64,000 nt of DNA, taken from assembly GCA_965153455.1 (NCBI GenBank), contig OZ234493.1:23736213-23800212 (forward strand), read 5' to 3'. This document shows, in pieces, positions 9,166 through 62,395 of the stretch; position 1 is the stretch's first letter; every line of letters begins with the position of its first letter. Origin of the DNA: Sphagnum compactum. Taxonomy: Eukaryota. The notes beneath the pieces are model-generated. The model saw only the letters and a program-made list of their open reading frames with translations. It was not told the origin of the DNA and made no database searches. Position numbers and translations under genes: made by a program.

Positions 9166-10331
9166 AATTGGGTATCCACTATATCCGAGCTCCTCAATAA
9201 AGAAGCAATGTGCTTTATGGTGAAGGCATGTACTCTGACCAAGCCACCCATTTGCAAAAACTCTCAAGGACAGATGGTAGCACAGCTAGATATGCACCTC
9301 CTGCCCTTATAGGTTATAGAGACGTACAATGCAAAGTGTTAATCCCACATTAGTGCAAGACTACTCATCAATCTTTTCATAGCACAGCAGTCAGCCCTAT
9401 TGCTTCTTTTGGTGAGTGATTAACAGAAAATGACTAAGCTAAACCCCCCCACCTCATATAGTTTGCTCTGCTAATCATTTACCAGAAGAAAGTCTGAGAA
9501 CAACCTCAGCTTCTCTTTCTATTTCTTATCTGCTCCACACAAAAATCAGATCACCTTTGAACAGGGTGCACCAAACAACAGAAACTGTTCCTATGTTGGA
9601 CATTTCAATCAAAGATAAGAAACCCTACCAGGTGCAAGGTGTATCATCTTTGAAGAATATGCAATGTTTATACATAGCATGTTGCTTGGTATTTGTAAGC
9701 ATCTGGCTGACACTCTCTGTGTGGCTGATTCCTGGGTCACCAGTGATCAAGCCCATTGTATAGATCAAAGACCAGTTCTCCAATGCCAATATGCCTCGTC
9801 AAAGCTGGGATTGCAATGTTCAACACTCTCTCTAAACACATGGCAAGGTCCTTGTGCTCTTGCCAAATCAGAAAGATGTATTGCTTTGCTCATATGAAAA
9901 ACTGCATTGGCATTAGGATGCATGAAAGAAGGGCTGGTAATTTGCTTCATCAATCAGCAAACTTGCATGCTCTTGTGCTTTAGTTCTCCATTGAACAGAG
10001 ACCAAATGACTGAAACCTGATTCTGTCAATGAACACAGTGATCTCAACAGTCCTTTGTTACAGGAAATTGACTGACCAAAATTGGTACCTGCCCTTCTTG
10101 GCGACACCTTTAGACGAGCATTGACATCAAGCAAATTGAGGCACATTATTGGGTTTAGTTGACAGTTCCCTCTGCAACTGTAGCCATGATGTCTAACTAA
10201 AACATATGTCTTCAGGAGTACTAACAATTTCCACATGATTCAAGGCAACCTGAACAAAATCGAGAGATGGCCAACTAGTAAGGTTACAGAGTACAAAGAC
10301 TTCAGATCCACATTATAACAGCAAAAAATCC

Positions 10332-11096
10332 TGTATTCAGTACCCCCACAAAAGTACCAGAGTCTAGCCACACACCCTTGTGTTGCATTGGTTGAAATAG
10401 TTTCAGTGCCTTCTGCCCTTATGCACATTTCACATGTCCCATAATCATGGCATTCCGACAGACGACAGTACGTGATGGCATGTTGTTGAACACTCTCTGA
10501 GCATCCTCCATGCTTCCACATTTTGCATACATATCAACCAAGCTAGTCCTCAAAAAGACATCAGCCTCACAAGCAGTTTGAATTATCTGATCATGAACTC
10601 GCCTGCCCTGTTCAAGTGCTCTTAAACTAGCACATCCATCGAGCAGCGGAACAAAAGCGAATCTGTCAGGAGTCATGCCCTCTTGTCGCATTTCTCGGAA
10701 AAACTCAACGGCCTTTTCAGGTTGCCCAGCCTTAACATACCTTGCAAGCCTTCTATTCCATGAAAAGCTGTCCAATTGGACGGTCCCTGGTGCCATGGCC
10801 GCCAGGGCCGCCAGCTTTGCTCCCACCTATGGGGGTTTTCCACGGTTGTCAAGCCAGAGTGCGTCCTGCGTCCTCTTATGCTTGAAATCCGAATATCTTT
10901 CATTCACCTTCTCCTTCCTGCAATCGCACCACTGCGAAGGATCTAAAAAGAATTGCCGCCAAAGTTTCTCTGTCTGGTATGGTACCGTTGGTGCAATATT
11001 TGCATCCTAAGTCGTTGCCAACGCTCTGTTACCACAAGTCACCACTACATGTCGTATCTGTCGAGACTCAAGGATGTGTCGATGGCGCATTGCCAT
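10332..11096 (-). pseudogene. PLS-class PPR pseudogene with N-terminal transit-peptide-like leader and OSB-type PDF motif
   Basis: One reading frame from ATG 11096: MAMRHRHILESRQIRHVVVTCGNRALATT*...EKLWRQFFLDPSQWCDCRKEKVNERYSDFKHKRTQDALWLDNRGKPP*VGAKL, then P-L-S-P PPR motifs (SWNRRLARYVKAG; LLDGCASLRALEQG; SLVDMYAKCGSMEDAQRVF; MIMGHVKCA*GQKAL) and a truncated L motif (TFVGVLN). In-frame stops at 11009-11007, 10829-10827 and 10421-10419. Confidence 0.85.
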
Positions 11097-11949
11097 CACC
11101 ACTAAAAATTCAAGGACCGACAAGAGTACCAGTATCACAACCAGAAACAAGCTTCAGAAGATTGGTTCAAAAACCATCTCGCCACAGATAAGATGAAACA
11201 ATCGAGAGTGTTGTGTACAAAGAAGTCACAGCAGGCACACATAAACAACGGTGAAGAGATATAAGCAAGGGAGAAGGAGAGGAGACACGAGGCACAAGAA
11301 CTGACGAAGTGTCTCTTGCCCTCTTCATCTCAGTTGTTGTGATAGTTGTGTTCATCATTACAAAAGTTTAGATGAAGTAAAACATGGTGCTCTTTACTCT
11401 AAACATGGCATCTTTGTTATTTAGTCTCTATGACCTGTTGGGATTAGCCATGTTTTATGACGACTACTGATTGCATGTATGAGAATCAGAGGCGCTTGCA
11501 TTAAGTTGAGAGGTTGAGTTGAAGAAGGCAAGGTCTATATATTTTCTCGTGTTCTTTGTCAGGGCTTTGGTTTTAAAAGCAAGAGGATGTGAAACCTAAT
11601 GTTGGAAAGTTTGTCTGTTCCCTGAAGAACCAGTAACAGCCAAGTGGCACCTGGATTGAATTCAATATTATGCATACATTTGTAGTCTTGATCATCCTCA
11701 GGTTATTGAAATCTCTGTGGAATTCCGAAGATAACAGGCAGATGCATGATATGGGATATGTGCTAATACAAAGTCTGTGCCAGTAGTCAAAGTTGTGTGG
11801 GCAGATGCATGAGTTGACATCTTTTCACTACATTTGAAGCTGTAGCAACCACTCAAAAACTCTGAAGAATTCCACCGGTGGTACATTTTTCCCACTTTCA
11901 AAATCATTGCAACCAAATGTTGATTAAAAGCCTCTACCATTCATACCAC

Positions 11950-12228
11950 TTTGTGGGTACCAGCTGGTTGACATGTACGCAAAATGTAGGTGGATAGAGG
12001 ATGCTCAAAGAGTGTTCAACAACATGCCATCACATGATGTGATTGCTTGGAACACCATGATATTGGGACATGTAAAATCTGGGCAAGGGCAGAAGGCACT
12101 GAAATTATTTCAAAAAATGCAACAAGGTATGTTGTGAAACTCTTACTTTTGTGGGGGTGCTGAATGCATGTGCGAGTATAGTTGCACTGGAAGAGGGCAG
12201 CTGTGCTCATGAGCAGATCGCCCAAAGT
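11950..12228 (+). pseudogene. PLS-class PPR fragment (S-P-L motifs) with frameshifts
   Basis: LVDMYAKCRWIEDAQRVFNNMPSHDVIAWNTMILGHVKSGQGQKALKLFQKMQQ, then after a deletion TFVGVLNACASIVALEEGSCAHEQI. No start codon or C-terminal domains. Confidence 0.85.
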
Positions 12229-12301
12229 TTCTCAATAAAAAAAACAAGAGATTCCTGTGAACAATCACTACTCAGGTAATCACTATTCTTATCTGAAGAC
12301 A

Positions 12302-12632: not shown

Positions 12633-14014
12633 TCAAAGTTTAGACAAAGGATGAGATGAAAGTCTCATTGAGATGCGCCCTTGAGCAACAAACTTCCGAG
12701 AAGCGATGTCACGAAGGTCAACAGACACAGTCACAGTTTCACCTTGTTGCAGTAGTTTTGCCTCCACCTCCACTTCTCTCTGTTCAAGGTCCAAAACCAT
12801 CACAAACTTACACCCCTCAGCACACCTTTACATTAAGATTCTTCAATTGCTGGTGAAAGTGAAAAAACTAGGGTGCAACTGGGAAGCCAAAGATGCATAG
12901 TAAATCAACAAAATACACAATTGCAAGCAAGTTTACATCAGCTGGAGCTGCTGCAATGTAAGAGATGTTCATGTCCGTGGTGACCATCGATCTGCTGGGA
13001 CCAATGAGGCTTAAGCTTGCAAGAGTCCCTGACAGGTCAACCAGTGAGGCGATAACACCTCCATGCATTGTCTGATACCGGTTCTGCACACATGAATGGG
13101 CTTCAATCCTCCTTGAGAAATCTACCCTTCACAGCATGAGCAGGTGCTTGCAACCCCTAATAATATGGAACTCCTGACAATCTTACATGCATACCAAAGC
13201 GTTGCTCCCTGCTGAACACAGATTGCAGAGTCCACACAAAGCCCTACCGTCGCTTGTACTAAGATGTCTAAATCTTGTACAGATTACTAGGTAGAAAAGA
13301 ATTGGCAGACTATTACTTTGCTATGAAGCAATTCTCAAGCAAGCCCTGAAAGCAAAATGTGGCAAGACAAAAATCAAGATCACAAGTTGCAAGATCAATA
13401 CCCCTAGGATGAGACTTGCATGCATTCAGAGAAACGCTGCAATAAAAAATCCTAATCTGCAGCCTTTTCCGCCTGTTAAGCTTTTTCCAGAATCACGAAT
13501 TCAGTGTTTCTATAGACGTACTCTTTAGTGCAAATCAGTTTAATATCCTCCCTTAGATTGTACTTCCAAAAGCTTAATCCCGTGTCGAGACTCTGTGATT
13601 AATGACCGAAATCTGAGCACACCGATTCCTCGGTTGTTCCGCCATTTCCCAATCTACATTGTCGCTATTGTGGCGAATAATACGGGCACTAAAAAACAGA
13701 GCAGAATTCAGCATCACGGAAGACAGTGAGCTTAACACTCGAAACGGGAGCAGGAACCAAACTTCAAAGCAGCAGGAACGGGAGAGTCGAGAGCAATTAC
13801 TTACAGTGAGGCGGGCCGCAACAGGAACGGTGAAGACGACATGACCAGGCTGAAAGAACAGAATCTGCATGTCCTTCGCATACAACATGTCATGAAATCC
13901 GACCATCTCGAACTCCGGCTCCAAACCCCCTCGTGCGCGGGAATTCATTCCCTCAATAAATGTTTGCGGCGTTGCCTGTCCATCCTCCCTCGATGCACCA
14001 CCTTCTGACACCAT
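12633..14014 (-). CDS. Hotdog-fold (PaaI / acyl-CoA thioesterase 13-like) thioesterase, peroxisomal PTS1 (SKL), 167 aa
   Basis: Exons 14014-13805, 13083-12937 and 12779-12633, all phase 0 with GT-AG introns. Motif NRYQTMHGGVIASLVD; C-terminus VAQGRISMRLSSHPLSKL*. Confidence 0.9.
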
Positions 14015-15316: not shown

Positions 15317-15745
15317 TCCTATTGGGTTTTTTTCTAGTTTTACATTTGATCCTATTGGGTTTTGTTCTGGTTCTACATCTCGTCCTGTTGGGTTTTGTTC
15401 TGAATCTACATCTGATGCTAGTGATTTAATGTGGTCAACTTATGGTTGTGACATATTTGTTAATTATGTTGGTAGTGGTCAATTTTTTGTTATTTCTTCT
15501 TCTATTTCTGAAAATGTCTATGAATTCCTTGAATTGCATGCTCCTATATGTAGTCCTAATGTGTTTGTTCAATATTTTGATCTCTCCATTTCTCTAGGCC
15601 TTCAACAGTATGGCATCCCTTCAAGTTCATATTCTACATATGATGTTTTTGTTCATCCTTTTACATTCAATGTTGTTTTTTGTGCATCCAATTCCATTAG
15701 GTGTCCTACCTCTATTATTGTGTCTTCTACATTAGATTGTTAGAT
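15317..15745 (-). mobile_element. Decayed ORF with three 33-bp repeats (DVEPEQNPTG-like), probably transposon-derived
   Basis: The minus frame reads as protein interrupted by TGA/TAA/TAG stops. Repeats DVDSEQNPTGR, DVEPEQNPIGS, NVKLEKNPIGG at ~15420-15317. Confidence 0.35.
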
Positions 15746-19403: not shown

Positions 19404-20746
19404 GAAGCTGCTTCTGGTAATCATTCAGGAATCAGCATGTATTTTCTGTTAAGCACTTAGAAGTCAATGTAGCAGATAGACTAATTATTGCCATCATGCT
19501 TTTCTTATCAAGCAATTCTTTGTGAACTGTATTTCAGATTTGTCTTTGTTGTTTCTATGCTTTTGGTACAAGTTTGTTTGTTCTTTGGGAGCGCTCAGGC
19601 AATGTTTGACATTTCCTTTTGCCTTTTCCCACCATCAGTTAAAAGTCTGTTCAGTGGGTTTCTCTTGTTTCCAGTGATGATGCTCTGTGGTTGAACATCA
19701 TGTGGCAATAAGGATTCAATGGGTCACAATTTGCTACAGTATAATGAATGATGCACAATATTGCAAATGTATTCCAGAAATGCTTGGAAATCTAACATGC
19801 TCATAGCATCGACATATCTTTTGACAAATTTTCCCAAAGGTGTTGGCTGTAAATATGTTGCCAGTTGGGTTGGGTAACATGTGTCGGTAACGGCCTCCAC
19901 CATCTGGACTTGAGTGAAAGTCCTTAAAAAATCACTGTCAGTGGGATGGCAACCTTCTGATTGACAACTCTTGATGGGAGCCTTGCTTGGGACCAGTGTG
20001 TCAATGAAAAGAAAATGTTGCAGTCCTGTCCACATAGTCTCTATTGGTAACAAGGACTTTGGATCATGTTGCATGATCCATCATTGTCTTGGCTCCAGTG
20101 AAATTGAATGTGAGATGTCCTGGTACATTTCATTTCATCTGAGCCATGAAGAGCACTTTTCCAAGTTGGGATTTTCACCCCCCTTACTTGTATCATGGAT
20201 TGGGTTGAGAACGTGCAAAGCTCATGTTTTAGTTGAATTTGTGAACTTGAGTTGAACATCACAGACACACAATATACAATACACAATAGGAACCGTAATT
20301 ACTCTCTCTCTAATTTGGACACCCGGGGAAGTCACTCCTTTGTATGTTTATAGAAATGATCTTCAAAAGCAAACTTCTGCAACTAAAATAGTAGCTAATA
20401 GCTAAAGCTCAATTTCAGGTCTTCTCAATGAGAATTCAAATCAAGGGGATGGAGAGTTTTAATGCCTCCACTACATTCTATTCTCTCCCCTTTCATACAA
20501 TTCCCAATACTGAGAATGGTCACTAAAAGGAGTCTTTGCTAGCTCATGTGGATCATACGGATTTGCGCTTTGTCCAAATACATTGTGCGAATACATAATA
20601 GTAATGCATGTCCATTGTTTTAGCTATTTATTGTGATATCCAGCGGTTACCTTGCTGGTATCCTATGGGTATCATAGCAATTTGTTTTTTTAAAAGTAAA
20701 AAATTCATGATTTTTATTATGGGCAATTCCTTCAGGCCAAGGCATT

Positions 20747-20794
20747 CCCAAAATAACGGCCTCGAGGCCAGAACCAAGGGCTCGTTATTTTGGG
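20747..20794. repeat. Inverted repeat / hairpin (12-bp arms) enclosing a 12-bp palindrome
   Basis: CCCAAAATAACG (20747-20758) and CGTTATTTTGGG (20783-20794); GGCCTCGAGGCC at 20758-20769. Confidence 0.7.
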
Positions 20795-21239
20795 CCTTTG
20801 GGTTCAAATGCTTATTATTTCAAGAACGACCCAGCCCTAGTACATTATGCTACACAAAACTTATTCGCTCTCGATAAGTATTTCGATAAATATGTGTTAT
20901 TTGTGCTATTTGGCCATTTCAATCAAAAGTGGCTACATTTGATGGGTTAATTGGGTTTGTAGATAAAGTAGAGTATGTCCATGACATCAATATTGAGGTG
21001 CTTGAAAAAAAATTAATTATTTGTAAAAGCATTTTTTAGGTCTAATTTAAGTATTTATAAGTAGATTTTTAAAAACATGATTACAACAATTTAGCTTTTG
21101 AAGTTCACATAAACAAGAGTTTCAAAATAATGTACTCAAAAAAATATTATTATCTTTATAAAATTATTTATTTATTAGTCATTTTATTTAGAGACCTAAT
21201 ATTTTTTTGTTTACATTATTTTTTGTGTATACTTTACGA

Positions 21240-21720
21240 TGCTTTCACCTCCAAACATTTGTAATTAAAATAAAAAGATAAGGAAAAAAGGACAATTCTG
21301 ACTTGATTGGAATGACTCCCAATTATCCCATTGATTACCTTAATGGTTGATATAAATCCTTTATAAATAGTAGATAGCCATTTAATCCAAAAACTACAAA
21401 ATCCCAAGGCTTGCATACAAGTTGAAAAGAAAAAACTTAATTTATTTTATCAAATCTTTTTTCAAAGTCAAGCAACAAAAAGCTAGACTATGGACATCCT
21501 GATTCGTGGCCTCTTGAGCCAAAAAGATATTATCCACAATGTTACAACTTATCATAAAACCCATTTGATTTGGTTGGATTATTGATAGAATATGCTCTTG
21601 GAATCTTTTAGCTAGGAGTTTGGTGAAGATCTTCTATATGTTGCCTAAACATGTTATTTGGGTGCTAATTCCCAATTTGAACTTGGTCACTTGTTTTGGG
21701 GATGACAATTATAATGCCTT
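21240..21720 (-). mobile_element. LINE (L1/Tx1-like) reverse transcriptase fragment
   Basis: GIIIVIPK...IFTKLLAKRFQEHILSIIQPNQMGFMISCNIVDNIFLAQEA...LLLDFEKRFDKI...MQALGFCSFWIKWLSTIY, with frameshifts. Confidence 0.8.
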
Positions 21721-21849
21721 TGTGCAAATGGAACTCTAGAGGATTGAATGTGCATAATAGAGTTGTGATGCATAAATAGATGTTGTTATTGCTTCAAATT
21801 AATAACTATGAAAGTGAATATTACTAACTATTTGAAATTCATGCCTATC

Positions 21850-22140
21850 AATGATACCTAGTTGATTTTTAAATCCCACGAATTTTATTATGCCCAAAGG
21901 TTTTACAAGGATGTTCACATGTTGTTTTGCAATGGGAATGCGTATTAGCTTGATTTTTCTTTTATGTTTATTTCTTCATATGAAGTGGTTGCAACTTTAT
22001 ACAGTTAGTCCTAGCTTGCAAGACGTCATTTTTATGGCATTATTCACTAACTTTAAAGTGCTTTGAATATCACAAAGTTATAACAATGTTAATCCATGAT
22101 TTTCAATTTTCAATTCATGTAATAACCATTTAATCCATTT
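21850..22140 (-). mobile_element. Ty1/Copia RNase H C-terminal fragment
   Basis: WIKWLLHELKIE...LCDIQSTLKLV...IKLIRIPIAKQHVNILVKPLGIIKFVGFKNQLGI resembles the Copia CDNQSA...Q.ADI.TKPL...F..LR..LG segment. Confidence 0.65.
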
Positions 22141-24299
22141 ATTTTGTAGTGCCAAAATGATTCCCAACCATTATTTTGATGTTTTGAAAAGTCAAATCAC
22201 CTCTTATTGAAGACTATGATCTAGATTTGAAAATATGTTTTGGAGGACTACACTAAGGTGCATTCATGGGTGGGGTATCACAACAAGAACCATGACACCA
22301 TTTTGTCATGTCTCCTAAGTCTTGAAGCAAAATGAATGTTTTGAAATGTTAAACAATGAAAGGGGACATGTATGTTTAAGCTTTCAACCAATAAGTATTA
22401 TAATGAATGATTAAAATCAATTGAACAAATTTTGAATGTCATGTTCAAGTATAAACCAAAAAGGAATGCAAGAATGACATTTTTAAAATAACACTATGAT
22501 TTGGAGTGTCAAAACCCTATTAGAAACATAAAATAATTTCTTTTTATTTTTGCACCCACATCTCCTATAATTCTTTTCAAACCTTTGGAATGTAATTTTG
22601 TAATTAACAAAGTTAGTTTGATTATCCTTATTAACACAACCTTTTTTATGAAAAAAAATCCAAGATTCTAACATCAATTCCACAAAATCTAATGATTTAT
22701 TAGACTAAAAATTTATGCCATCATATAAAACATAATTTATTCTATTTTTGATTAAAATATGGAGCAATTTGAACAAATATTAAATTATTCCTATTGATTC
22801 TTTTTCGATAAAATTGTGTAGTGAGACACAGTTCCTAAGCCATCTTTCAAAACATTTAAAGACATATTTTAATCATCCAAATCATGAAAAATCACCATAA
22901 TTTTAATAAAAGAATATATGAATATCTAATGGAAAAAAAAAATCTACCAAATGCATTATTTCATAAATGTAATGATCATTCAAAGTAATGTCTTGGGACA
23001 AGACATTCCTTTTGTGTACCTCCACCATTCATCGTGAAAGCTTTTGGATTAAAATTCATATGAGGAAGTTATGAATGCACAAAATAATGAGATTCATAAC
23101 TTGACAATTTTGGCAATTCCCGCATGAGAGTTCTTAAAATGTTTTTTCATTTTAATGTAGTCTATATTGCCATCTATAGAGTATTATAAGGAGGAGAGTG
23201 GTGATTCCTCCCCAATTCAAATTGTGGTGTGCTTGTGAGTTGCTCATGATTCATTCATGCATCATTTTGATTCCAATTTGTGCTAACCACTTCTTTCTTG
23301 GCTTGTGCAAATTGACTTCACCTTGAGTTGAACTTTTTGAACAATCCCATCAAAAAGTTTCACATCCACTTTTTGCCTTAGTGCATGAAGCTTAAAAATG
23401 TGTCTAAGGCCTTCAAATATTTTGGAACACACCACGTTGGAAGATTTAACCCAATTGCTTGTGAAAAGGCTTTGGGGCACATCACCACTATTATAAACTT
23501 CCAAAACACCTTACTACCCACCAGCATGTTAGCACAACATGTGATAAAATGTAATTTCTTTTTATATGTCAAAAAAAGGTTAAGGGTTATTGCAATTTGA
23601 TGGTAAAATCATTAAATCAAGATTGTGTTCATTAATTCCATAAATAAAAATCCAAATATGACATTTAATATTCAAATCATCATCATTATTTTGACAACTA
23701 AACAAGAAAAATAATTTAGATGCAACTTATTGATTGACACATGACATTAATAGATTAGGCCAACTTTGAAGGAACAAAGAACATGTATTAAACTTTATGT
23801 GATTTGTATGAGCTGTCACAACCTTGATGTCAAACTCACAAAAAACTTATGCTACACATACCACCTTGCTTGCATGAAAATAGTTCGCAAAAATAAAATT
23901 ACACACCAAATAAAAACAAAAATCTGTTAAAAAATAGAAGAATTTGCAACTTGCAAGTGCAACTAATTTTTAGTCATAAACAACATTTATAACGAACAAA
24001 TTATTAACTCTTTTCTAAAAATTGCATAAAACATTGCTTACAAATTTGGATGAAGTCAACAGTCAACACATACACTTCATTTGTATCTAACCTATATATC
24101 CTATGCAACTAAGGTGATTCCTATGCAACCAAAATGGTTGGACTTTGCATTGTGCTATATGTATAATTAGCAATAAATGTTGATATGACAAATGGTGTAT
24201 TTATATAACATTGGTTAATTAAATAACAATATGTCCCAATATAAGGTTATCTTTGTGGACAAACGATCATTTGTCACATGTCATTCTAATTAGTTTAGG

Positions 24300-25060
24300 C
24301 TAGTAATTAAGCCTAGGTAAGTACGTAGACTTAAATACAAGTATGTAAGTAGGTAGGTAGGTAGGTAGGATCTTATTTATTTTTGATAACAAGTCTCATT
24401 GATTGGCTCATCTTTAATAACACTTGCACTTTGAATCTTTCTAATGTATACTATATGTGTAGTTTATTATTCACCTAGCTATATAATTAGTAAACTAAAA
24501 GTTGTGAACAAAGGATATATATGGGATAAACTCTAATGAAAGGGAAACACTACAACATTATCCCACATCCTTTGTTCCATATAAGAACATTATCCCTTAT
24601 TCACACAATAATACTTACTATTTAGTGACTTATTTACCCAACTTAAGTAAAATAACATATATATAATTAAAATTTAAAAAGTATGTAGCCTTGCTGGCTT
24701 ACCCTACCTAGTTATTACCTACCTACTTACACAACTTAATTAATTACCTATCTACCATATAGGTATGTAAATAGGTTATGTAGGTAATTTATATTAGTTA
24801 TTATTAATTAGGTACATAATAAGTAGGTAGGTAGGTAGGTAAACTAAACTAAGTAAGTAACCTAGGCTACTTACCTACCAATTTGGCCTATTAGCAAGGC
24901 TTAAACGTAACTAGTAGCTAGTTAGCCTACTACCTTGTTTAATTAACTTAGTTACATACTTACCTACCAAAATTACCAACCCTTAACCTATGGATTACTA
25001 AGCACCAACCTATCTACCTTACTACCTATTATTAACCCTCAACCTACTTCTATACCCATA
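24300..25060. repeat. TAGG/CCTA-rich low-complexity blocks in alternating orientation
   Basis: (TAGG)n at ~24350-24369 and ~24824-24841; ACCTAC-rich at ~24700-24760 and ~24860-25050. Similar tracts at ~55470 and ~62060-62200. Confidence 0.6.
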
Positions 25061-26337
25061 AATATATACCCCTACAAAATATACCCCTAATAAACCTTGA
25101 TATACATGTAAGGGCTTTAGGTCCATATTTTCATTGCTATCAATATTTAATAATTTTTCAACTAATGTGATATATAATGGGATAGGTGGATGAAAAATCA
25201 CCCACAATTCATTCCCCTCAAAAGATTAGTTGATTTCATTATATCCCAAGTTGCAAATATGACCAAAGATAGAAATGTTAGAACTTAATTACAAAAACAA
25301 GTTGTGCAAGTTGCACATGTTGTACCTACAACTAATGTAAGACATAAAAGGTTGAGCCAAAAAATAAAATAAAAATTATTGATAATTTTTTGAAATTGTT
25401 AAAAATTGAAACCCATTGGGTTATTATTACAAATGCACAACAAAAGATGTATTTTTCATACTTATTTTTCAATTGTTGAACTTATGGATTTCTTAATTTT
25501 AATTTACCAAACCTCATTTTCTAAAATAAATAAATATTCAACAAAGGAATGTTGAACATTAAACATAGGTATGATAGTTACAAAATGCATGGCTAACATT
25601 TTAGAAGATTTCTTTTAATGTTTTCATTGCATAATCTATCACAAATATTAGAGTAGGGAACCAAATGACATTTTTAAAAGAAAAAAAGAAAAAAGAAAAA
25701 TACATTATGTAAAACTTAATGTCATAATGGGTGAAAGATCTAGGATAAACAACATTTTCATTAGAGTTTATTTAGTTGCAAAATTTTGTTTTGAAACTCA
25801 AATACAAATGTATCCATTGCCTTTCACAAAAACATATCGGCTCCACCATATAGCAAAGATGCATGATAACAAAATAATGTAAGGTGGCATTGGTGGCATT
25901 GTAGAATAAGTTTTTTTTTTTTAAATGTAAATAATTTTACAAATTTATTTTTTGTAATGTGACATTTGTTTCAAATATGTGTTAAGTATGTTTTTAGCCA
26001 AAATGAAATATAAATTTTAAAAATTTTAAAAATAATTTTTATATCTGATTTAAATAAGCATTAGTTTCACTAGCTTTTCAAATTTTTTTTTGTTTTGAGC
26101 ACCAAATTGATTATTCAATTTCAAAAATATTTGCCCTGTATATTTATTATTCCAAAGTTTTAAAATAATCATAATCAACTTATCATAAACTCAATAGAAT
26201 GCACAATAATTTCATAATGAAACATAAATTTTTGGAATTCACTGTTTTTCTGTTTATCAAAAAATTGTCTCATTTAAAAACTCAATTTTACATAGTCAAC
26301 TTTTAAAAATGTTTTTTACCATGCTTTCATCCTCTTC

Positions 26338-26602
26338 TATTGAGCGATCCAACTCAATTACATTGATATTGGGAGTTTTTCCTGCAATGTTGTAGTCAGT
26401 GTAAACTATGATAGAGATGCTCAAACTATTGAGTGATCCAACTCAATTACATTGATTTTGGTAGTTTTTCCCACAATGTTGTAGCCACGTCAACTATGAT
26501 AGAGTTGCTCAAACTATTGGGCAATCCAACTCAATTACATTGATTTTGGGAGCTTTTTCTGCAATGTTGTAGCCATGTCAACTATGATAGAGTTGCTCAA
26601 AC
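26338..26602. repeat. Tandem repeat, 3 x 88-89 bp
   Basis: Units start at 26338, 26427 and 26515: TATTGAGCGATCCAACTCAATTACATTGAT...AACTATGATAGAGTTGCTCAAAC. Confidence 0.9.
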
Positions 26603-27366
26603 TATAACTCAATGAAAATACCATAATTGCTGAGTCTATTTGTATTAGGGAATTGAACATCAATTTACGCAACAAAATCAAAACTTTACTTGGACTTGCT
26701 ACTAACACCAAACATTTGAAAATGGCATTCCGATGGTTCCAATAGTAACCCACCCAATGAACAAATAATGAAATGATTTTATATCTCTAGACCACATTCA
26801 AGAGCCCATCGACAACACTTGGCTAATAGCTACTAAACTTGATCACACAAGCGCCTCTCAACTGGGCTCCATCTTCTCCTCCTAAAAACCTCACAAGAGA
26901 ACACATGAAAAGCTACCCCATCAAGATGGAAGGGGATTCTCACTCAATCCCTTCTTTTGCCTACACAATTCCCCTTGTTTGCTACTTGATTCAAACTTGC
27001 CATGAGGTTGTAAAACCTTAGTTTGGGTCCCAAGGTAAATGGACATTAGTAGAAGATGGTACTTAACAACAAATTGGCAACATTGGGTTCATTTGATTGT
27101 AGAGGAACTTTTGAAGATGTGATAAAAAATAAAGTCTCAAAAGGAAAAGGGTTTGGATTTTTCTTTCCTTTGGAACTATCAAACAGTTTGTGTCAAAACC
27201 CCAAAAAAGTGAAACATACCAAATTTCTGAACTCAGAACCATACCTCATTTCTGAAGCATTGTTGCCTATGTCACAAACATAATTGAATTTCAAATGACA
27301 TCAATTTGAAAAATTACACTTTAGAAACTTAATTTCCACAAGTGTCCATCTGCAACTTTTAGATAT

Positions 27367-27394
27367 AAACCCTAAACCCTAAACCTTAAACCTA
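27367..27394. repeat. Interstitial plant telomeric repeat (AAACCCT)n
   Basis: AAACCCTAAACCCTAAACCTTAAACCTA. Confidence 0.7.
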
Positions 27395-27614
27395 GTCTAT
27401 ATAAACAAGTGCTGATAGACCTGTCCCTTAACATTTGAAAATACAGTGCCAATTTGCAAGGAACCTGCAAGAACATTTAGATATATATATATAACACCAG
27501 TAGTCACAATAGGCACTAATCTGTTACAAGAGAGTGATGCCATTTTGCATGAACAATTGTCAAATTGAGATCCAATGTCACAGCGGCAAAGCACAGAGAA
27601 AGCCAGCAATCTGT

Positions 27615-29100
27615 TTACATAGTCCTTAAAGCAATTGTAAGAGATTGTCTGCAGGTTGCTTGAAAAGATGATATATTGGTAAGAAGTCTTGCAAACCTTG
27701 TAAGGACAATCAAATTCTCTGTTGCCAATATAGAAAAGAAACTGTAATACATCAAAAGTTTCAATCCAATAGCTCCATTCCACATGACTGCAGTGATGGG
27801 CACCTAGCTATGATACTTGTGAAGTCAAGTGCATAAAATGACAATACAGTTACCTCAATCCTGGAGATAATAACTCTCATGAGAATCGAGAAATCTCCAT
27901 ACTCAATCCTTGCAATAAGCCCAAAAGAATTTCCCACTGCATGATTTGGATTTTGACATTCTCATTGAGTTCTCCAACCGGCAAGAATACACATCCACCA
28001 CCTGCAATGATCACAGACCTGAGTATCCTGTGAAAGGCGAAGGAGGATGCTGAAAATGTAGTACAAAAATGTGAATATGAGAACCTTATGGGTGTGTTTC
28101 CAGGTAAACCTTTATACAAAACTGTCTCAAACTCAATAGTATCAGTGTCTGAATCTCAGTCCTCACAACCTCATCGTTATGTATGCCACAAGGCTGGTTC
28201 AAGGATGGCAGACTCTAGAATCCTTCCCTGCTGCCGCCTTCTACCACTGGAAATTTTCAATAGGCTTTTCCTCCACCTTGAGCTGATGTAGTAAAATTCC
28301 AGATCCTCAACAAAAACTGTACCCAAGTTTCTGAGGCCCAGTGTTCATGCCCAATTTGCTTTGACTGGGAGAACACAACACTTGTGACAAGATCTCCAAC
28401 CTGTGATGGAGGAACCCTAGTATGCAACTGAATCATCATCATCTGCATGAAAGAGATTGTCTGCAGCAGCATGTGAAGCTTGTTAGGCCGTTGCAGACCT
28501 ACTGACAAGCTGCAGAACCGTACACCTTCTTCTACATTCTCATCAATGTTTCTTTTTCCAGCAATGCTGCTTCCTTTCAATCACTTGCACACAAAGGTGT
28601 TGACAATCTTTCTGGGCAAGTGACTGAAAGCAAGCATTGTCTTCAGCAGCAGCAGCATCTTCCTGCAAGCTCTATTTGCTCTCTCCTCTGTGCATACCAT
28701 GCCATGCCATGCCATGCCATGAAGTTTTCCAACTGTTGCAAAATATTTACAAAGCTTGAGATAGCCTTCGACAATGAAAAAAGGGGAAAAAAACACACAT
28801 ACATACAAACACGGATCACAAACCAAAAGAAACAAATAAAGATGGCAAGCAGCAGCTTACAAACAAACTCAATCCCACAGAAATCTGACCTCAGAATGGA
28901 AGAACTCCCGCACTACTGTGTCTCCCAGCGGCAATTCTGCTGCAACATGAAACCGCAGAACCGCAACCACTCCAACCACGACGACAAGCTCCGGAAACTT
29001 GCAGCGACACAACTGTCTTTGTACAAGGGCCGCAGACGTGCATCAATCAAAGCAGATCCGCAGTCAAGATCATAGCATTTCTCGTCGGATGCGCAGGTTG
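27615..29100 (-). pseudogene. Putative decayed multi-exon gene or spliced lncRNA, head-to-head with HLB1
   Basis: Series of GT-AG-bounded, GC-richer blocks (exon-like 28687-28401, from 28282, 28001-27854, from 27803). Protein-like frames are broken by TAG/TAA/TGA; family not recognised. Confidence 0.3.
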
Positions 29101-42022: not shown

Positions 42023-45000
42023 TCAGCCATAGTGATTCTTGTGACCTATTTGAACAGCAGAGTCACCAAGGCAGATATTCCAAGCTGATGGTTTTTTCTT
42101 CCTTACCTGTTTGATATCTTTGTCCCCAGACTTGGTGGTGCCCATAAGACGGGAGAAGAGCCGTTTCAACGGGGAACTTACTAGCCCTGTTGGGAGGGGT
42201 ACCTTGGAAGCATCTTCTGCAAGTAAGCTCCTCAATGGGGTGCGTGCCTTTCCTTTTCCAGTCTTCCCTTCATTAGTGCTGCCATTCTCAACCATGCTTG
42301 AGCAGGCCATAGCATCTGATAGGGTATTCTCCACAGGGCCTGAAGCAGGTAGAATCTGGTCATCAAGAGAGGTTGCTGCACCTGATTGAACTCCATTTGT
42401 AGCGAAATCCTCCAAGCAAGCTGGGGTCTCTCTGCCTCCACTTGAGAATACCTCTGTTTCCTCCACGAGCAAATGGTCTTGATGGGAACTTGAGAGTGGG
42501 TGCTGCTCAAGTACAGGAAGTAAGGAAGCGGCTGGTTCTTGACACTTTGCAGTTTCACGGGCTGACTGCCCAGTTGTCATCATTGACCAAGGTTTCTCTG
42601 GCAACGCCAAGTCTTTCCAAGCAATTGAACTCTGGTCTTGATCAGCTGTTTCAACCTGCATGACCTCTGTGCTAGAATCTCTGTGCATTTCAGTTACAGC
42701 TATAGCTTGCACTTCATCACTGATAATATTTGTGGATGAAGCCTGTGACACCTCAAAGCTGTACTCCTTTGGTTTCCTGGAATCTAACAAAGGAAGTGCA
42801 TTATTACTCATATCAGCTCTTTCAGATTCATTGGCATCATCATCATGGTTGTCCTGGTTGCATGGTTCTCTGCCATCTAAAACACTGAGTTCTGCAACTG
42901 GATCAGATTTTTGAGCCTGTACACCATCATGGCTGATGTTGTCCTGGCTTAGTTTGTTTGATTTGCTGAAATCAACACTCTCTGCAACAGTTTCTGCACA
43001 CCCAGATCAAACTTCAGAAGTCTATGGTTTTTACCAACAATAGTTCTAGAAAGACAACACAAAAAATACCCACCTTTATTGCCTTTGACATTTCACTGTC
43101 TGACCTACACACGAAGGTGTAAGAGATTATCTAAACATTTGCAGAAACAACTCTGAATCTTCAAATAGTGTACCACATCTCTCATACCTCCCAATCTGCA
43201 AGGACTTCCTGTTCCCATACCCTCAGAGAAATGAGACATCATAAATTCCATCACATTTCTCTTCCTTTCCCCTGATAACTTTGGAAACAAACAAAAAGAG
43301 GGCATTGCAGATAGTGTACCTTGGGCAGAACCTAGATTAACACTGCTGTTATTCCCATCCAAACTCGGATCTGTCTCAGCACTTTTTGTTTCATCCTCAT
43401 TACCTCCAATTGCATAAACAGGTGACACACCCACTAGAGTATGCCAAGAAACTGTATTTACCATTTCCCCTGCATTTTCATGTGACAATGTCTCCTCTGC
43501 CTGACTGGAAGAACTGTCTTCTTCAGATAGCACACATTTTGTCTGCAACTGGGAGTTTAGCTGTGTAGCTAAATCAGTGGCTACTTGGGTTCCTTGCTCA
43601 TCCATATCATGAGCTCCTTCAAACCCTCCTGATTTGGCTGGTTTCTCAATCAGTTCGGTGGAAATACAGCTTCCACCTTGAGATACTGAATCTTGGTCAT
43701 GCTCTGACTCCTCTACCTCATTTCCTGGGTTGATATCTCTCACTACACAATCATGTGCAACCAGCGTTGTGGGTGCCACAGAATTTTCCTGTGTAACTGG
43801 AGCATGATTTGTCTTGAACCAAGCAGACCCAGATTCCACTACAGAAGAAAAGGTTTGTTCAGCAGGAGACCTCAGCAGTCGGTCATTAACCTCAGTTTCA
43901 GATCTGTCATCCTCTAGTACCTCCAGATTAGCTGCTGGGATGAGCCCCTCAGGGATATCTGCTGTTCTCACTAACATATCACTTGTTTCAGCTGTAGGAA
44001 GTTCATCAAGACAATTCAAATACTCCTCATCGCCAAGTATGTCCACTGGGTAGGCCTCTATGTAAACCTCCCTTGCAAGAGGATTGACCTCCTCTTCAAC
44101 AGCTTCAACCTTTGTCTCTTCACTAGGAAACACAGTTTTATCCTGAAGTGTTGGAGCAGTTGTAGTCTCCAGAATAGGAAGTATATCAGTAGCAATTTTG
44201 TCAGCTTTTTCCTCTTCTTGCTTATGGAGAATGTTTTCTCTTGGGGTCCCTGGCCTTTGCACTACTTCAGTTCTTTCACAGCTGCCAAGCCCAAGGTAGC
44301 CAGGTTCTGCCTGATGTTCTCCCCTCATGACATTGTCAGAATATGAGGAAACTCCCATTGCAGAATGTTCAGTGCTGATCTCAGGGAGTATATGCATAAC
44401 AACTCTATCATCTTCTGACATATCCAAAATTTGTTCTGACACCTTGTTGTATGCAACTAGTTCCTCAGCTACATCAGATGTATCAAAGACAGGATCTCTG
44501 AGAGATAAAGGACCTGCAAAGAGACAATGCAATCGACTGTAAAATGTTAGGACTCTGAGACATATGGACATGCAAAGAGAAAATGGAATAGACTGCAAAA
44601 TATCAGTATTCTGAGAGATAACGGAACTGAAAATTGAAGAGACAATGGAATGGACTGCAAAGTGATAGGACCCATGACAAGCTTTTCACACATAAAATGT
44701 CCCAGATATTTAGACTTTCTCAGTACTGTACTTGCACACTATTGCGGGTCCAACTACAAATCAAAACAGTACTCAAGCTTAGAGTTCATTTTAATCTAGT
44801 GAGATCAAGATTCAAGGTTGTCTGCTGAAGTCCTCTTCAGAGACCCACAACAATTATACCTGCTCTGCCCTCATTCAAGTTTTGTGCGCATAGGACTTAT
44901 CTGAAGAACATCTATCAAGAAAACAGAGAACTAACGTGAAAACAAACATACCTTCAGAACTGGCAAGAGTATTCAGAAATAGACCTGACTTGGGGCTCTT

Positions 45001-48000
45001 CTCCTCCTCCAAGATGCCTGGATCTTCCTCTGTTAAACACTTCACTTCAAGACCCTCAACATTATCCAGTTTCTCTTTCAGTTGTTTGTTCATGTCTTCA
45101 ACTGCACTCCCAAGCACACCATCAGTGTTTCCAGTGCTTTTTCCTGCTTCCACCACAAAAATGGCATCAGATCCTGCCATTCTTGTTGCTCTTGTCTCTT
45201 GATGCTTCATTGGTGAGGGTGCAACACCATGGCCAACAACACCCTCAAGATTTTCAATCTTCTTATCAGTGTCTATTGAAGCTTCATATGCAGGAAGATC
45301 CTGTTCTGTGGTTGAACTCACCTGCCAAATACCAAACAAATCCAGCTCAAAATCCAATTCACTGAAGATTCTCTTACAAATTGAAACTGCCCAAGCAACA
45401 GTCCAGTGAAACAGTATCAAATATTCATCACATTCCACCGCTCTTGGACACCAATCTTTCACATGTCTATGCCAATGGACAGATGCAAGTATCAATATTC
45501 TCCTCAAGGATACTGCCTCTCATGCCTGTGCTCCTCACAAAACAGGATTTAGATATGTTTCAAGGGTGTTTAAGAACAGAAACAGTTTCTCACCTTCTCA
45601 CCAACACCTAGTCCTTGATGGATGGTGACCCCTTTAGTGTCATCCTGTGTATCAACATTCAAATGATGTGCATTCTCTGTCATGGGAGTCATGTCCCTTC
45701 CAATTCCTGGGGTATATGGCAGTTTCTCAACAGGCCCTCCATCAGCTGGCATCAGGTCCTTCTGTGCTGCTAACTCAGTCTCTTCCTGTATAGCCTTCAC
45801 AAGTATCAATGGTGCACCAAACCCCACCTGTAAAGAATTCGAACCTGTTTCCTCCAGCAAACATGTCCTGCTTCCTCCATCCGCACTGCCTGTAACTTTG
45901 TCTGCAAGGGAATCATTCTCAGCGGGGGCAGTCACCTCTTCTTCTGATACTTGGTGGATTTTTGGTGAAGTGATGTTTGTAGATTTTGGGCAATTCACTA
46001 GTTCCTGAGGCAGGTATGCTGTGCTCCCATCATCCCCTAAGTCTGGACGCCCCTCTGCACCTGCATCATTCTCAGGAGCATCAGTCACCCCTTGTTCTGA
46101 GAATCCGTGGATTTCTGGTGAAGAGTTGTTTCCAGATGTTGAACCATCCAGTGGTTCCTGAAGCAGACTTCTTGTGCTCCCTTCCTCCACAATGCCTGCA
46201 GCCACCTCTGCACATCCAGCATTCTCAGTACCATTGGTCACTTTGTCTTCTGCGACTGCTTGGAATTCTGGTGAAGTGCTGTTTTCAGAGTTTGGGCAAT
46301 AGGGTGTTTCCTGAAGAAGATATGCCTTGCTCCCTTCATCAAACTTATCTGTAGCATCCTCTACTAATGCACCCTTCTCTGAAATGTTGGTAATCCCTTC
46401 TACTACCCGGATGTCCTGTGAAGCGAGATATTCAGATTTAAGACTACTCAGTGGTTCCTGAAGTGAGCAACTTGGGCAACCAATATCTGTAGCTAGTTCA
46501 CCATTTTCAGGAGCATCAGTAACCCCTTCATCTGATACTTGGATTTTTGATGAACTGCTGTTCTCAGATTCTGGGAAATCCAATGATTCCTGAAGCACAC
46601 AAGCTGTGTTCCATTCCTCAACACTGTCTGTAGCATCATCTGCATATGCATAATTTTCAGGAACATTGGTCACACCTTCTTCTGATACTTCTTGGATATT
46701 TGGTGCAGTGTTGTCTTCAGGATTTTGGAAAACCAGTGGTTGCCGAAGACAAAATATTGTACTCCCTGCATCCACATTGTCTGTAGTGTCCGCTGCACAT
46801 GCACTATTCTTGCAGGTATCGGCCACCCCTTCTTGTGATACTCCATGAATTTCGGGTGAAGGATAATTTTGAGATTCTGGGCAATCCAGTGGTTCCCGAA
46901 GAAGACATGCTGTGCTCCCTTCATCTACAATGTCTGCAGCCTCCTCTGCACATGCAACACCCTCAGGAGAATTCATCACCCCTTGAGATGATTGCAATTG
47001 TTGTGAAGTGCAGTTCTCAGTGTTTTGGCAATCTGATGCTTCCTGATGCAAACATGCTGCACTGACATTATCCAGATTGTGTATAACTTCCTCTCCACCT
47101 GCACCATTCTCAGTCAACCCTTCCTTAGAAATATGATTGATTTTTAGTGAAGTGCTGCTATTTTCAAATTTTGCACAATCCAAGAGTTCATCAAGCAGAG
47201 ATGCTGTGTTCCCTTCATGAAAACTGTTTGTAGCTTCTTCCTCTGCATATGCAATACTCTTGGGAATGCTGGTCACCCCTTCTTCTGGTAGCTCTTGCAA
47301 CTTTGGTGAAATGCAGTTGGCAGACATTTGGCAATCCAGTGGTTCCAAACTTCCACTCAGATCCATCATACCATCAGCAGAGTCCTCACAAGTTTCAACT
47401 TTGGAGACTGCAGCCTCTACAAGATCCTTGTTGCCTTTACTGGAAATGAAAGTGGCAATCACGTTGTCTGATCTCATTTCAACTGAGTGATCTGCAGCAG
47501 GTGACTTCTGGAAAGAATTGAGTGCAACAGAACTCTCCTGATCCAATTGGACTGGGTTCACTTGGGGGATGTTTGGTAAGACAAGCACATTTGTGGCACT
47601 CTCTTCCCTCTCAGGATATTTTTCAAGTTCAAAGGCATCCTCCCCATCACCAGCGTCTGGTGTAGAGGAGGGTAGCTCCTTGTGGTTCATAGCTGCTCCT
47701 TCATCATCGAGGGAACTTGATATCTCCTCGTTGAAAGAGGACGTGGCTGGCTCTAACTCTTGTGATGACTCCGGTCCTGAAGAATGATGATGGAAGCCTG
47801 AGTCTGGCTCCAGGAAGATATCACTGGATTCCTGCTTAGAAACAGATCCCTCAAGCCCCAAGTTTGAGGTAACCAGCTTTCCAAGGGTGAAAGAAGCTGG
47901 CCTGATGTTCCCTGATGTAGCTTCGGGCTCTTGCTTAGGGCATGGCATGGGAGATACATGGTAAATTGCATGAGATGTGTCCAAATGAGGTGATATAGCA

Positions 48001-59954: not shown

Positions 59955-60262
59955 CCCCTCTTGATAGTTCTATCGCATCTTGGTCATGCACAAAATTGAA
60001 CAATAGTCCAAGCTTCCCCTCTTGGTAGTTTTAGCACAACTTGGTGGTAAAAGAAAATTGAACATGTGCACTTGCATTGTTGAATCAAGAAATAGTAATC
60101 AAGACTTTCTCTCTTGGTAGTTCATTCTATCATAACTTGGTGGTGCATAGAAATGAATGCGTGCACTTGCATTATTGAAGTGAGAAATAGTAGCTAGGCC
60201 TTCCAAGCTATGCACAAACATGAATGTGTGCACTTGCATTATTGAAGTAAAAATAGTAGTAA
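59955..60262. repeat. Degenerate tandem repeat with units of ~60-95 bp
   Basis: CTCTTG(G/A)TAGTT...CTTGGT and GTGCACTTGCATT(G/A)TTGAA...AAATAGTA each recur three times. Confidence 0.65.
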
Positions 60263-62320
60263 AAAATTTTGTTGTGAGAACTAAATTTATTTCTTTTGAC
60301 AATCTAATTGCTAACCTAAAACTTAACCATTATCCAAATTGACCCCTTCCAAAAATACTTACACCTTAATATCTAAAAAATCCTTATGTTTGGGGAAAGG
60401 AGCATTAACCTTAACCAAAGGTTATGAAATATCAAAAAAATTCAAAACCTTACCCAAAGGTTCCCAAAAATTCATTTAGTAAAAAACAATCAACTTTGAA
60501 AGTTCCTCAAAATTCACAAAACCCCACAACATATATATATAGACCAACTTCACTTTTTGCATATTTACCAAGCTAAATATATTTCTTAACATCACCATGC
60601 CCATCAACAATGAAAATGGTCCATAAAAATCATAATTTGCATTAACATGACATGGTGTGAACTTCATAATGTCAATTGCATCAACTTCAAGCTAGCAATT
60701 TTTTGACCTTTTTGTCTCGTTTTATACCATGTTTTTTCAATTTCAATTTTGGTTATGTAAAATTTATATGTTATTTTATTGTCCTTTTATTTAAATAACT
60801 TTCTCAATATGGGTTTAAATTGGACTTTTCTTAACCTTTGGTGAAATAGGTTGTGGTTTGAAAAAACTTGAGCTTCTTGACTTTGAAGGACTTGATGTAA
60901 TTCCACCACTAATGGGAATTACTATCAAAACATGTTGAATGGGTGAGATTTGAAATGATGAAATGAATGGTGGCAAGTCAAGTATTTTGTAAAATCCATC
61001 TTCACCATGGTCTATTTCAAGTTTTGTAGAGTCCAATTGTTGTTCATGGAAACTCCCCTTTGAAAATATATGGAAACATCATTGAAGATAATGTTTTAAT
61101 TTTAAAACATTTTTTTCTATTAGAATTGTAAAAGATACCTTTGAACCCTTTGAGGATTTCCACTACCCATAACGTTACAATTAATGACCTTTCATAAAGT
61201 TTTCAAAAAAATCAATTGGTACAAGGGCATAGTGCAAACATCCTTTTTAAAAAAAGGATGGCTAATTTGAGGCTTGTGGTTAAATGAAAGTTCAAATGGG
61301 GTGATTGTGTGTAAAGAATCTGTAAATGGCATGTAATGGCTACAACTTTTCTTTAACATGAATAAGATAGTTGAATTGAATCCTCAAGTGTTCTAAACCA
61401 TTTCGGGTTAGCTTGTGGGGCACCATCTATTGGAGTTGTATTGCATTGTCAATACAAAATTGATTAAACTTTAAATTACATATGAATTCACCACCATTAT
61501 CAAAACACAATATTTTATTTTATTAGCAGTGTGGTTTTTCAATTTACTTTTGTATTTTTGAAATTTCAAAGATGTATTTGATTTCTAGATAAGAAGAATG
61601 CATTATTATATTGTGAATAATCATCAACAAACAAAAATTAAATAAAAAGTTCCACCCATTGAAGGGGTTTGCATTGGACCACACAAGTTGATATGCAGCA
61701 AACCTAAAAATCATGTCCTTCACATCACTACAACAAAATCATGTCCTTTTCATCATTTCAATTTGATTACACAATCAAATTTTTTTGATTGACATGACTA
61801 AACATGTCCATTTGACTAATTATGAAAGTAGTAATGTCCATTATGACTAAATTCAATCATTATAACATGACATAAATGATGACATGTTATTTTTGATGTT
61901 TTATGTGGCATTGCGACTAAAATGTGATGCTTTTAAAAATCTTATGTGGCATAATGTATATGACGTCTTTATTTTTTAATTAAATGTAACATGTTTACCT
62001 AATTATTTATATCCATTAAAACATCATATACATTATGCCATTCTATTTTTTTTGGTCTTACGTGGGTAGGTAAATAAGTAGGTATTAACTACTAGTTACC
62101 ACACACACTTTAGCTAGCTACCTACTTACATGGATACCTACATACCTATTTACCACCTACTACATACTTACATATTAATTTATAAGCACCACCAATTACC
62201 TATTTACATAATGAATTTGATTTTCATTGTGAATTTAAATAGGTATTTTATAACATTTGAAAATTGTTCAAATTTCAAAAATATGTTGTGTTTATATTTA
62301 TGCAATTAATTTGTTATCAC

Positions 62321-62395
62321 GTGAAGTGGTGGTTGGATGGTTAAAAGACTTGCCATATGGCCATGAAGGTGAGGATTCAAATCTCACTCTTGACA
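62321..62395 (+). other. tRNA-like relic (SINE head or tRNA pseudogene)
   Basis: A-box-like TGGTTGGATGGT, T-arm-like GTGAGGATTCAAATCTCAC, and ends GTGAAG/CTTGAC that nearly pair. No intact anticodon arm. Confidence 0.3.

Follow-up and report, generated by a model that had tools for sequence, protein, structure and literature searches.

PPR arrays bind RNA with their N-terminus directed towards the 5' end, and proteins of the PLS-E-DYW type are site-specific C-to-U editing factors. Such PPR-DYW factors are treated as composed of a transit peptide, a PPR array, E motifs, and a DYW domain, and synthetic editors follow that plan. PPR tracts combined with an accessory nucleic acid domain are found in maize PPR4 (N-terminal RRM), in the PPR-SMR proteins, and in PRORP (NYN domain). 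In the work on PPR56, the last PPR of an editing factor is placed at position -4 from the edited C, and the N-terminus is treated only as a signal peptide (PMC10482289). The OSB proteins are described as carrying, behind an SSB-like OB domain, between one and four 50-residue motifs that take their name from a conserved Pro-Asp-Phe (PDF; PMC6963530, PMC4166229, PMC6451138). According to the available portions of these papers, the PDF motif is plant-specific and organellar (PMC6963530, PMC4166229), the PDF of AtOSB1 suffices for the binding of ssDNA, and ssDNA binding by PDF motifs is known only for AtOSB1 and AtOSB2 (PMC6963530, PMC4166229, PMC6451138); OSB1 and OSB2 are stated to favour ssDNA over dsDNA or RNA (PMC4166229). 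No fusion of PDF and PPR is mentioned in the same portions of the three OSB papers.

The window (the whole stretch of DNA analysed, 64,000 nucleotides) contains, on the minus strand between 11096 and 10332, a leader, a PDF-type motif, and PLS-class PPR repeats in one frame with three stops. The reading from ATG 11096 is MAMRHRHILESRQIRHVVVTCGNRALATT*DANIAPTVPYQTEKLWRQFFLDPSQWCDCRKEKVNERYSDFKHKRTQDALWLDNRGKPP*VGAKLAALAAMAPGTVQLDSFSWNRRLARYVKAG..., in which the leader MAMRHRHILESRQIRHVVVTCGNRALATT comprises 29 residues and is followed by TAG 11009-11007, a short stretch, EKLWRQFFLDPSQWCDCRKEKVNERYSDFKHKRTQDALWLDNRGKPP, and the second TAG (10829-10827). Beyond that codon the same frame continues with VGAKLAALAAMAPGTVQLDSFSWNRRLARYVKAGQPEKAVEFFREMRQEG... 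and more PPR repeats, and it contains a TAA at 10421-10419. The features are listed in Table 1. The locus is highly likely to be a truncated, non-functional copy from a nuclear family with the build leader, PDF, linker, PLS-class PPR array, E, and DYW.

Table 1. Positions of the features of the two PPR-bearing fragments in the window.
Feature	Position	Strand	Remarks
N-terminal leader, residues 1-29 (MAMRHRH...ALATT)	11010..11096	-	Arg-rich, one acidic residue
In-frame TAG no. 1 (residue 30)	11007..11009	-	Arg in P0205/P0206/P0211, Trp in P0046/P0073/P0038
PDF-type motif, residues 43-89	10830..10970	-	13/15 family-invariant residues kept
TGC (Cys) codon, the 'WC' position	10926..10928	-	Codon read
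TCG (Ser) replacing invariant Pro of the eponymous P-D-F	10890..10892	-	Codon read and family alignment
In-frame TAG no. 2 at invariant Trp of ...PPWV	10827..10829	-	Codon read and family alignment
Linker from PDF to first PPR, VGAKLAALAAMAPGTVQL	10773..10826	-	3-residue insertion absent from the four aligned relatives
PLS-class PPR remnant, P-L-S-P and start of an L	10332..10772	-	Homology ends at 10332; no E/DYW after
CGG (Arg) for conserved Trp of VVSWNAM	10455..10457	-	Codon read and alignment
In-frame TAA no. 3, Gln in the family (CGQGQ/CAQGQ)	10419..10421	-	Codon read and alignment
Headless PPR fragment, S-P-L pieces	11940..12258	+	Frame change near 12125-12136; strand opposite to first fragment

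An earlier, sequence-only reading had described this frame as an OSB-type motif joined to a PPR array behind an organelle-targeting-like leader. Its translation and coordinates, including TAG 10829-10827, were confirmed by translation and codon check; it had overlooked TAG 11009-11007 and TAA 10421-10419. The leader from ATG 11096 is Arg-rich and acid-poor as it had stated, but is severed from the motif by the first of these overlooked stops. It had also listed three single-base deviations from the motif. TCG for Pro and TAG for Trp are genuine, whereas the 'WC for WW' is common to P0205, P0206, and P0211 (SQWCDCR), the three closest relatives, and is thus a trait of the subfamily and no lesion.

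The identity of the motif was determined with a profile made from 141 PDF instances, all taken from proteins also bearing an SSB/OB domain. Compared with the six-frame translation of the whole 64-kb window, this OSB-only profile gave a single significant match, at 10970-10830 (57.6 bits, E 2.8e-19; next domain E 3.1). Because of this match, which lies far outside the range of chance and was obtained in a profile comparison of the kind that the earlier reading had proposed, the upstream motif is classed by its sequence as an OSB-type PDF motif. When 1.84 billion representative proteins were searched by phmmer with the 59 residues encoded at 11006-10830, there were 396 matches with E<=1e-3, 98 with E<=1e-10, and 10 with E<=1e-30, many of which carry the motif repeatedly (up to 13 stretches). 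A Pfam scan of the 150 matches listed of the 396, with the threshold for SSB set to 1e-3 for one batch and to 1e-5 for the others, gave the SSB family in 23, PPR families in 11 (among them P0046 with a weak match, 1.7e-4), and a kinesin motor in one. When the listed matches were classified by phmmer, 58 had an SSB-like domain, 11 had PPRs, and 81 had neither; these 81 comprise short fragments and arrays of several PDFs. The PPR part of the window reading was matched by PF13041 (3.1e-17), PF01535 (6.2e-15), and PF12854 (7.1e-07), and the alternating P, L, and S repeats of the PLS class were recognised from the Pfam matches and from collinear alignment with PLS proteins. In the same Pfam scan of the window reading, no SSB match was obtained and no Pfam model covered the PDF motif; a MavL-like row (E 0.13) was dismissed as chance-level.

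Unusual PDF proteins were noted in passing. P0047 (1526 aa) has three PDF stretches and a kinesin motor (PF00225, 1.8e-86) and represents either a PDF fusion or a merged gene model. P0002 (1160 aa, Kingdonia uniflora), P0003, P0004, P0005, and P0007 have 8 to 13 tandem PDFs, against one to four in OSBs, and most of these five lack a recognisable OB domain.

The window copy was aligned collinearly with P0205 (75% identity), P0206 (73%), P0211 (76%), and the fragment P0046 (66%), the collinearity running through leader, PDF, linker, and first PLS repeats. Its leader is homologous to those of P0205, P0206, P0046, P0073, and P0038, its PDF is nearest to that of P0205 (86% identity over 50 columns), and residues 8-217 of P0070 were placed by tblastn onto 10970-10332 with 57% identity (E 8e-71). 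The family layout, which the window copy shares, consists of a leader, one PDF, ...PPWV, a linker of ~15 residues, and the first P motif (FSWNxxLARYVKAG). In P0115 (957 aa) the PDF lies at residues 81-127 and is followed by PPRs, E, E+, and DYW, and the order PDF-PPR-E-E+-DYW recurs in P0081 (564 aa); in P0070, P0088, P0108, P0015, and P0036, between one and three PDFs precede the PPRs. That PDF-like and PPR fragments adjoin merely by chance, the null hypothesis named in the earlier reading, has next to no probability. No observation speaks for it, residue-by-residue conservation of the junction (PDF, ...PPWV, linker, first P motif) extends over 47 aligned members, which belong to three plant lineages, and the collinear family alignments refute the proposal. 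The PDF-PPR fusion, as judged from these alignments, is real.

The extent of the family was assessed with two queries. The PDF-linker part of P0081 gave 54 proteins of 310-987 residues, all with PPR Pfam families, and the first 135 residues of the window reading gave 47 among longer proteins; the union of both searches comprises 81 relatives. A PDF that spans 45 or more of the 51 profile positions is present in 74 of the 81, and 33 of the 81 combine such a PDF with HxE, CxxCH, and a terminal DYW-type tripeptide. Intact proteins with PDF and PPRs that end in E/DYW, sought in the earlier reading as paralogues of the window copy, thus exist. By source, the complete PDF-DYW proteins are 22 of 52 from Sphagnum, 4 of 5 from Calypogeia fissa, 1 of 4 from Diphasiastrum complanatum, and 6 of 20 with no source name. 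The named sources (seven species of the moss Sphagnum, the liverwort C. fissa, and the lycophyte D. complanatum) come from word-index searches, which cannot show absence from seed plants or Physcomitrium.

With the three-PDF protein P0015 as the query, PPR proteins of the ferns Adiantum capillus-veneris, A. nelumboides, and Ceratopteris richardii were obtained, together with a protein of 1374 residues (P0232) from a protist/algal collection. Each of the seven proteins that this search added has N-terminal PDFs, and none of them has a DYW end. P0015 (1371 aa) and P0232 (1374 aa) each show three well-formed PDFs and a long PPR array with no DYW; the three-PDF form may reach beyond land plants, P0232 being derived from a protist/algal transcriptome collection.

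The PDF of these proteins is the same motif of ~50 residues as in the OSB proteins, and the conserved W, F, P, W-D, R, K, P-D-F, H, L-W, and W are common to both. The two groups differ in their arrangement: OSBs have an SSB-like OB domain and one to four C-terminal PDFs, whereas PDF-PPR proteins have an N-terminal PDF, no OB domain, and a PPR-E-DYW body. The PDF-PPR members have a single PDF, but two or three are present in P0154, P0088, P0108, P0015, and P0232. An SSB domain was absent in all seven larger PDF-PPR proteins scanned (P0070, P0081, P0115, P0088, P0108, P0015, and P0036) and from the precomputed Pfam lists of the relatives, and the overlap of PPR and SSB in the protein set was zero. 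A tree of the 396 PDF instances (55 columns) was poorly resolved. In this tree, 64 of the 65 PPR-linked PDFs fall into one group of 92 tips (support 42), which also contains three SSB-linked instances and encloses an inner group of 88 tips with a support of 88; this placement suggests a single origin of the PDF-PPR fusion.

Compared with PLS-class PPR-E-DYW factors such as PPR56 and PPR65 of Physcomitrium, the intact family members likewise consist of a PLS array, E, and a DYW domain with HxE and CxxCH, and differ by an additional conserved domain that follows the transit-peptide-like leader and precedes the first PPR; the window copy differs further in being broken and in lacking E and DYW. 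With PPR4, PPR-SMR proteins, and PRORP the family shares the idea of a sequence-specific PPR tract joined to a second nucleic-acid-handling module. It differs from these in the module itself (PDF), in belonging to the PLS-DYW class, and in its named sources, all of which are non-seed plants (mosses, a liverwort, a lycophyte, and ferns).

Conservation within the family was expressed, region by region, as the average frequency of the most common residue, and columns with a frequency of at least 0.9 were counted. The values were 0.81 for the PDF (26 of 51 columns), 0.85 for the DYW domain (55 of 93), 0.76 for the E motifs (31 of 92), 0.74 for the PPR part (63 of 220), and 0.44 for the leader (2 of 91). 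By this measure the PDF is about as conserved as the DYW domain. In the 47-member alignment, 15 of the 20 invariant columns lie within the PDF; they correspond to E92, W95, F99, P102, W105, D107, R109, K112, P118, D119, F120, H122, L129, W130, and W139 of P0081. The near-invariant positions were identical in a mixed alignment that included OSB-type PDFs, and by its conservation the PDF is a module maintained by selection and no relic.

In the AlphaFold2 model of P0081, calculated with the family alignment, residues 1-83 are disordered (mostly pLDDT <50). This stretch corresponds to the leader of the window copy; its disorder and the composition of that leader are the only hints of import into mitochondria or plastids. 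The pLDDT values over the PDF, in blocks of ten residues from 91 to 150, are 93, 86, 76, 89, 87, and 85, and values of 82-89 continue into the first PPR helix at residue 156. The PDF is modelled as a helix (84-100), short strands (105-107, 120-122, and 128-129), and a second helix (140-146), and the PDF alone, modelled from P0054, adopts the same fold with a pLDDT of 86-95 over residues 31-87. Searches with the PDF-only model gave no usable match in Foldseek (best E 3.0, a WW domain) or in VIA-align against 48,161 chains (best Z 2.6), and these two fold searches gave no functional hint. In the sequence-profile search of the PDB, the PPR part of the profile was matched and the PDF was not, and the ESM Atlas returned one row at 0.75, under its lead threshold. 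No solved relative of the PDF fold was thus found in these searches, which is not proof of a new fold.

By its domain composition, the family is built like an organellar factor for site-specific C-to-U RNA editing, with one more module at its N-terminus. In living members the PDF could be an accessory single-strand nucleic-acid-binding module that acts independently of sequence. Because the N-terminus of a PPR array points to the 5' end of the RNA, a PDF located near the first PPR would sit 5' of the PPR footprint and might contact the strand just there, and it could strengthen the binding or hold the target in single-stranded form for the deaminase. That the PDF grips nucleic acid and does so on the RNA substrate is a tentative proposal to which we give slightly less than an even chance.

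The main rival to such a grip on RNA, because OSBs reportedly prefer ssDNA, is that the PDF tethers the editing factor to organellar ssDNA (nucleoids, transcription bubbles, or R-loops) and thereby couples editing to transcription or DNA maintenance. A link of the family to nucleoids or R-loops had been suggested in the earlier reading. In favour of a tether, the PDF of OSBs binds ssDNA, OSB1 and OSB2 are reported to prefer it to dsDNA or RNA (PMC4166229), and the residues conserved in OSB PDFs are those conserved in the PPR-linked PDFs. The modelled PDF, however, is only ~15 residues away from the first PPR helix and is predicted confidently throughout, which would suit contact with the same strand, and a tether to DNA is considered unlikely, if a serious contender. 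Should the PDF bind organellar ssDNA, or both DNA and RNA, the family would be an editing-factor lineage from early land plants with an integral OSB motif as conserved as its deaminase, through which C-to-U editing is coupled to nucleoids or transcription; this wider proposal is possible yet clearly less likely than not. If it is true, the PDF is a general single-strand module common to genome maintenance and RNA editing. In a bolder and much less likely version, ssDNA might be the target of the DYW deaminase in some members, as it is for bacterial DYW-like toxins.

The continuity of model confidence from the PDF over the linker to the first PPR (pLDDT 82-93) would also suit a different role, in which the PDF caps the N-terminal end of the PPR solenoid as a structural element or serves in protein-protein interaction or oligomerisation; AtOSB2 is reported to be a tetramer (PMC6963530). 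The conserved residues, however, are aromatic and basic (W, F, R, K, and H), as would be usual for single-strand binders. Most PPR proteins, moreover, need no such cap, and a role as cap or interaction module is regarded as improbable. The preferred function of the PDF remains the tentative one of a grip on the RNA substrate.

In the literature covered, no description of a PDF motif joined with PPR or DYW proteins was found; an earlier mention is possible. The databases do not name the PDF in these proteins because no Pfam model covers the motif, and the family members are entered only as 'hypothetical', 'unnamed', 'DYW domain-containing', or 'pentatricopeptide repeat-containing'. The statement of the sequence-only reading that it knew of no characterised class with this architecture agrees with these results. 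What is new is an undescribed accessory domain in editing-type PPR proteins, the proteins themselves being already public and unnamed. Many such proteins from the sampled groups (peat mosses, a leafy liverwort, a lycophyte, and ferns) have an additional conserved domain at the N-terminus, of a type previously linked with the maintenance of organellar DNA alone, and the known range of the PDF motif is widened beyond the OSB proteins. Whether the PDF raises RNA affinity or editing efficiency, or instead places the factor on nucleoids, is a testable question, and the PDF could serve as a small add-on for designer PPR editors. The value of the dead locus in the window is that of a pointer to this family, which is likely to come as a surprise to the field of plant RNA editing.

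The locus itself does nothing visible, and the feature in the window is an ordinary pseudogene. It retains the leader and the PDF, together with roughly 4.5 PPR motifs, and everything beyond about residue 255 is lost. The lesions also include, relative to the family alignment, Leu for Ser in FFSDP, and an intact open reading frame is precluded by the three in-frame stops. When tblastn was run with five family members, PPR similarity was confined to 10317-10976 on the minus strand and 11850-12258 on the plus strand, and no similarity to E or DYW was found anywhere in the window. The three stops, the replaced Pro and Trp, and the loss of E/DYW bear out the earlier description as a dead copy of a PDF-PPR family, and that the locus is a pseudogene of a genuine PDF-PPR-DYW family is very likely.

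The closest relatives, P0205, P0206, and P0211, keep the HSE site and lack the C-terminal CxxCH zinc motif of the DYW domain, ending before it or out of frame with it; the tail of P0206 seems to resemble a frame-shifted CGDCH region. Since its closest relatives lack this zinc motif, the 'SQWCDCR' subfamily may be degenerating as a whole in several Sphagnum genomes. Decay of an editing factor would be expected once the edited organellar site has been lost.

The stops were compared with DNA contigs. Contigs from another DNA run of the same organism (X2, which may not be independent of the assembly) showed no differences over 10000-10512, 10751-10975, and 10948-12172 and span all three stops: the base at TAG no. 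1 was unchanged in record 14, TAG no. 2 was confirmed by record 11, and TAA no. 3 was confirmed by record 9, the latter two with no differences. A second, sister species (X8) has the locus at about 99% (12 differences and three gaps in 1538 bases), with no difference at the stops among the differences listed. Because X8 also has the locus, the fragment is older than the split of the X2 and X8 species. The window copy is single-copy. The summed contig depth over the PDF bin was ~30 times the single-copy level; this depth figure does not equal a copy number and hints at many paralogues.

From a polyA RNA run of the same organism, 12 of 499 placed reads were at least 99% alike to the locus. RNA depth over the unique stretch 10972-11538 (leader and upstream part) was 0.3-1.05, with the first mate always on the plus strand, and a metatranscriptome contig of 159 nt matched the PDF part (10841-10984) with one difference. 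At place 10945, 15 of 17 RNA reads carried the paralogue-type base (Ser codon), and the paralogue reads had a Trp codon at place 10457 and CAA at place 10421. Because of the 15 paralogue-type reads, it is the PDF-encoding paralogues that are expressed and this copy is faint at best; transcription of the window copy is faint at most, and a few RNA reads on the unique part and the single 159-nt contig mean that the locus is not proven silent.

The faint, strand-consistent reads over 10972-11538 and the near-identical metatranscriptome contig over 10841-10984 could also be taken to indicate that the locus is still a working gene, whose stops would be assembly errors, intronic, or read through, or which would encode a short PDF-only protein. 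The contigs of the other DNA run, however, show all three stops with no differences, homology continues in frame across every stop, the invariant Pro and one conserved Trp are replaced, and the window has no E or DYW part. The first stop, moreover, precedes the motif, so that no ATG-initiated product would contain the PDF. A working gene is thus very improbable and already largely refuted, and the locus is best regarded as a pseudogene.

The second PPR fragment, on the plus strand, forms an inverted repeat with the first. The arms lie at 10332-10540 and 11965-12168, about 1.4 kb apart, and consist of a 160-nt pair with 82% complementarity and a 25-nt pair with 92%; the inverted repeat points to a local rearrangement. 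PPR genes are known targets of small RNAs in flowering plants, and it was considered whether a hairpin RNA formed from these inverted fragments, for which the complementarity of both arm pairs would speak, yields small RNAs against the PPR family. The polyA RNA depth between the arms (11539-11943), however, was 0, and an identity of 82% is the usual level for unrelated PLS repeats of the family, which makes a hairpin source of small RNAs highly implausible. Joints of the type 'opposite strands' between PPR fragments in DNA contigs were rejected as cross-matches of paralogous repeats and do not indicate a hairpin transcript. Among recognisable neighbours, the one closest to the PPR fragments is an exon-sized frame at 12868-13089 (minus strand) with similarity to the 4HBT thioesterase superfamily (PF03061, E 4.5e-09).

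Other parts of the window were noted as follows. The minus strand at 45570-49571 contains an open frame of 1333 residues with no Pfam match, which is acidic and Ser-rich and has degenerate repeats of ~45 residues (...EGSTACLLQEPLDCP.SENS.SPEI..VSEEGVT...); the frame probably represents a single giant exon that encodes a disordered protein. Open frames at 43105-44685 and 42023-43006 lie on the same strand. Low-GC blocks were found at 20001-28000 (0.31) and 60001-64000 (0.29), compared with about 0.40-0.46 elsewhere in the window. At 15317-15415, a unit of 33 nt is present three times in tandem, the copies having 79-100% identity to the reference copy.
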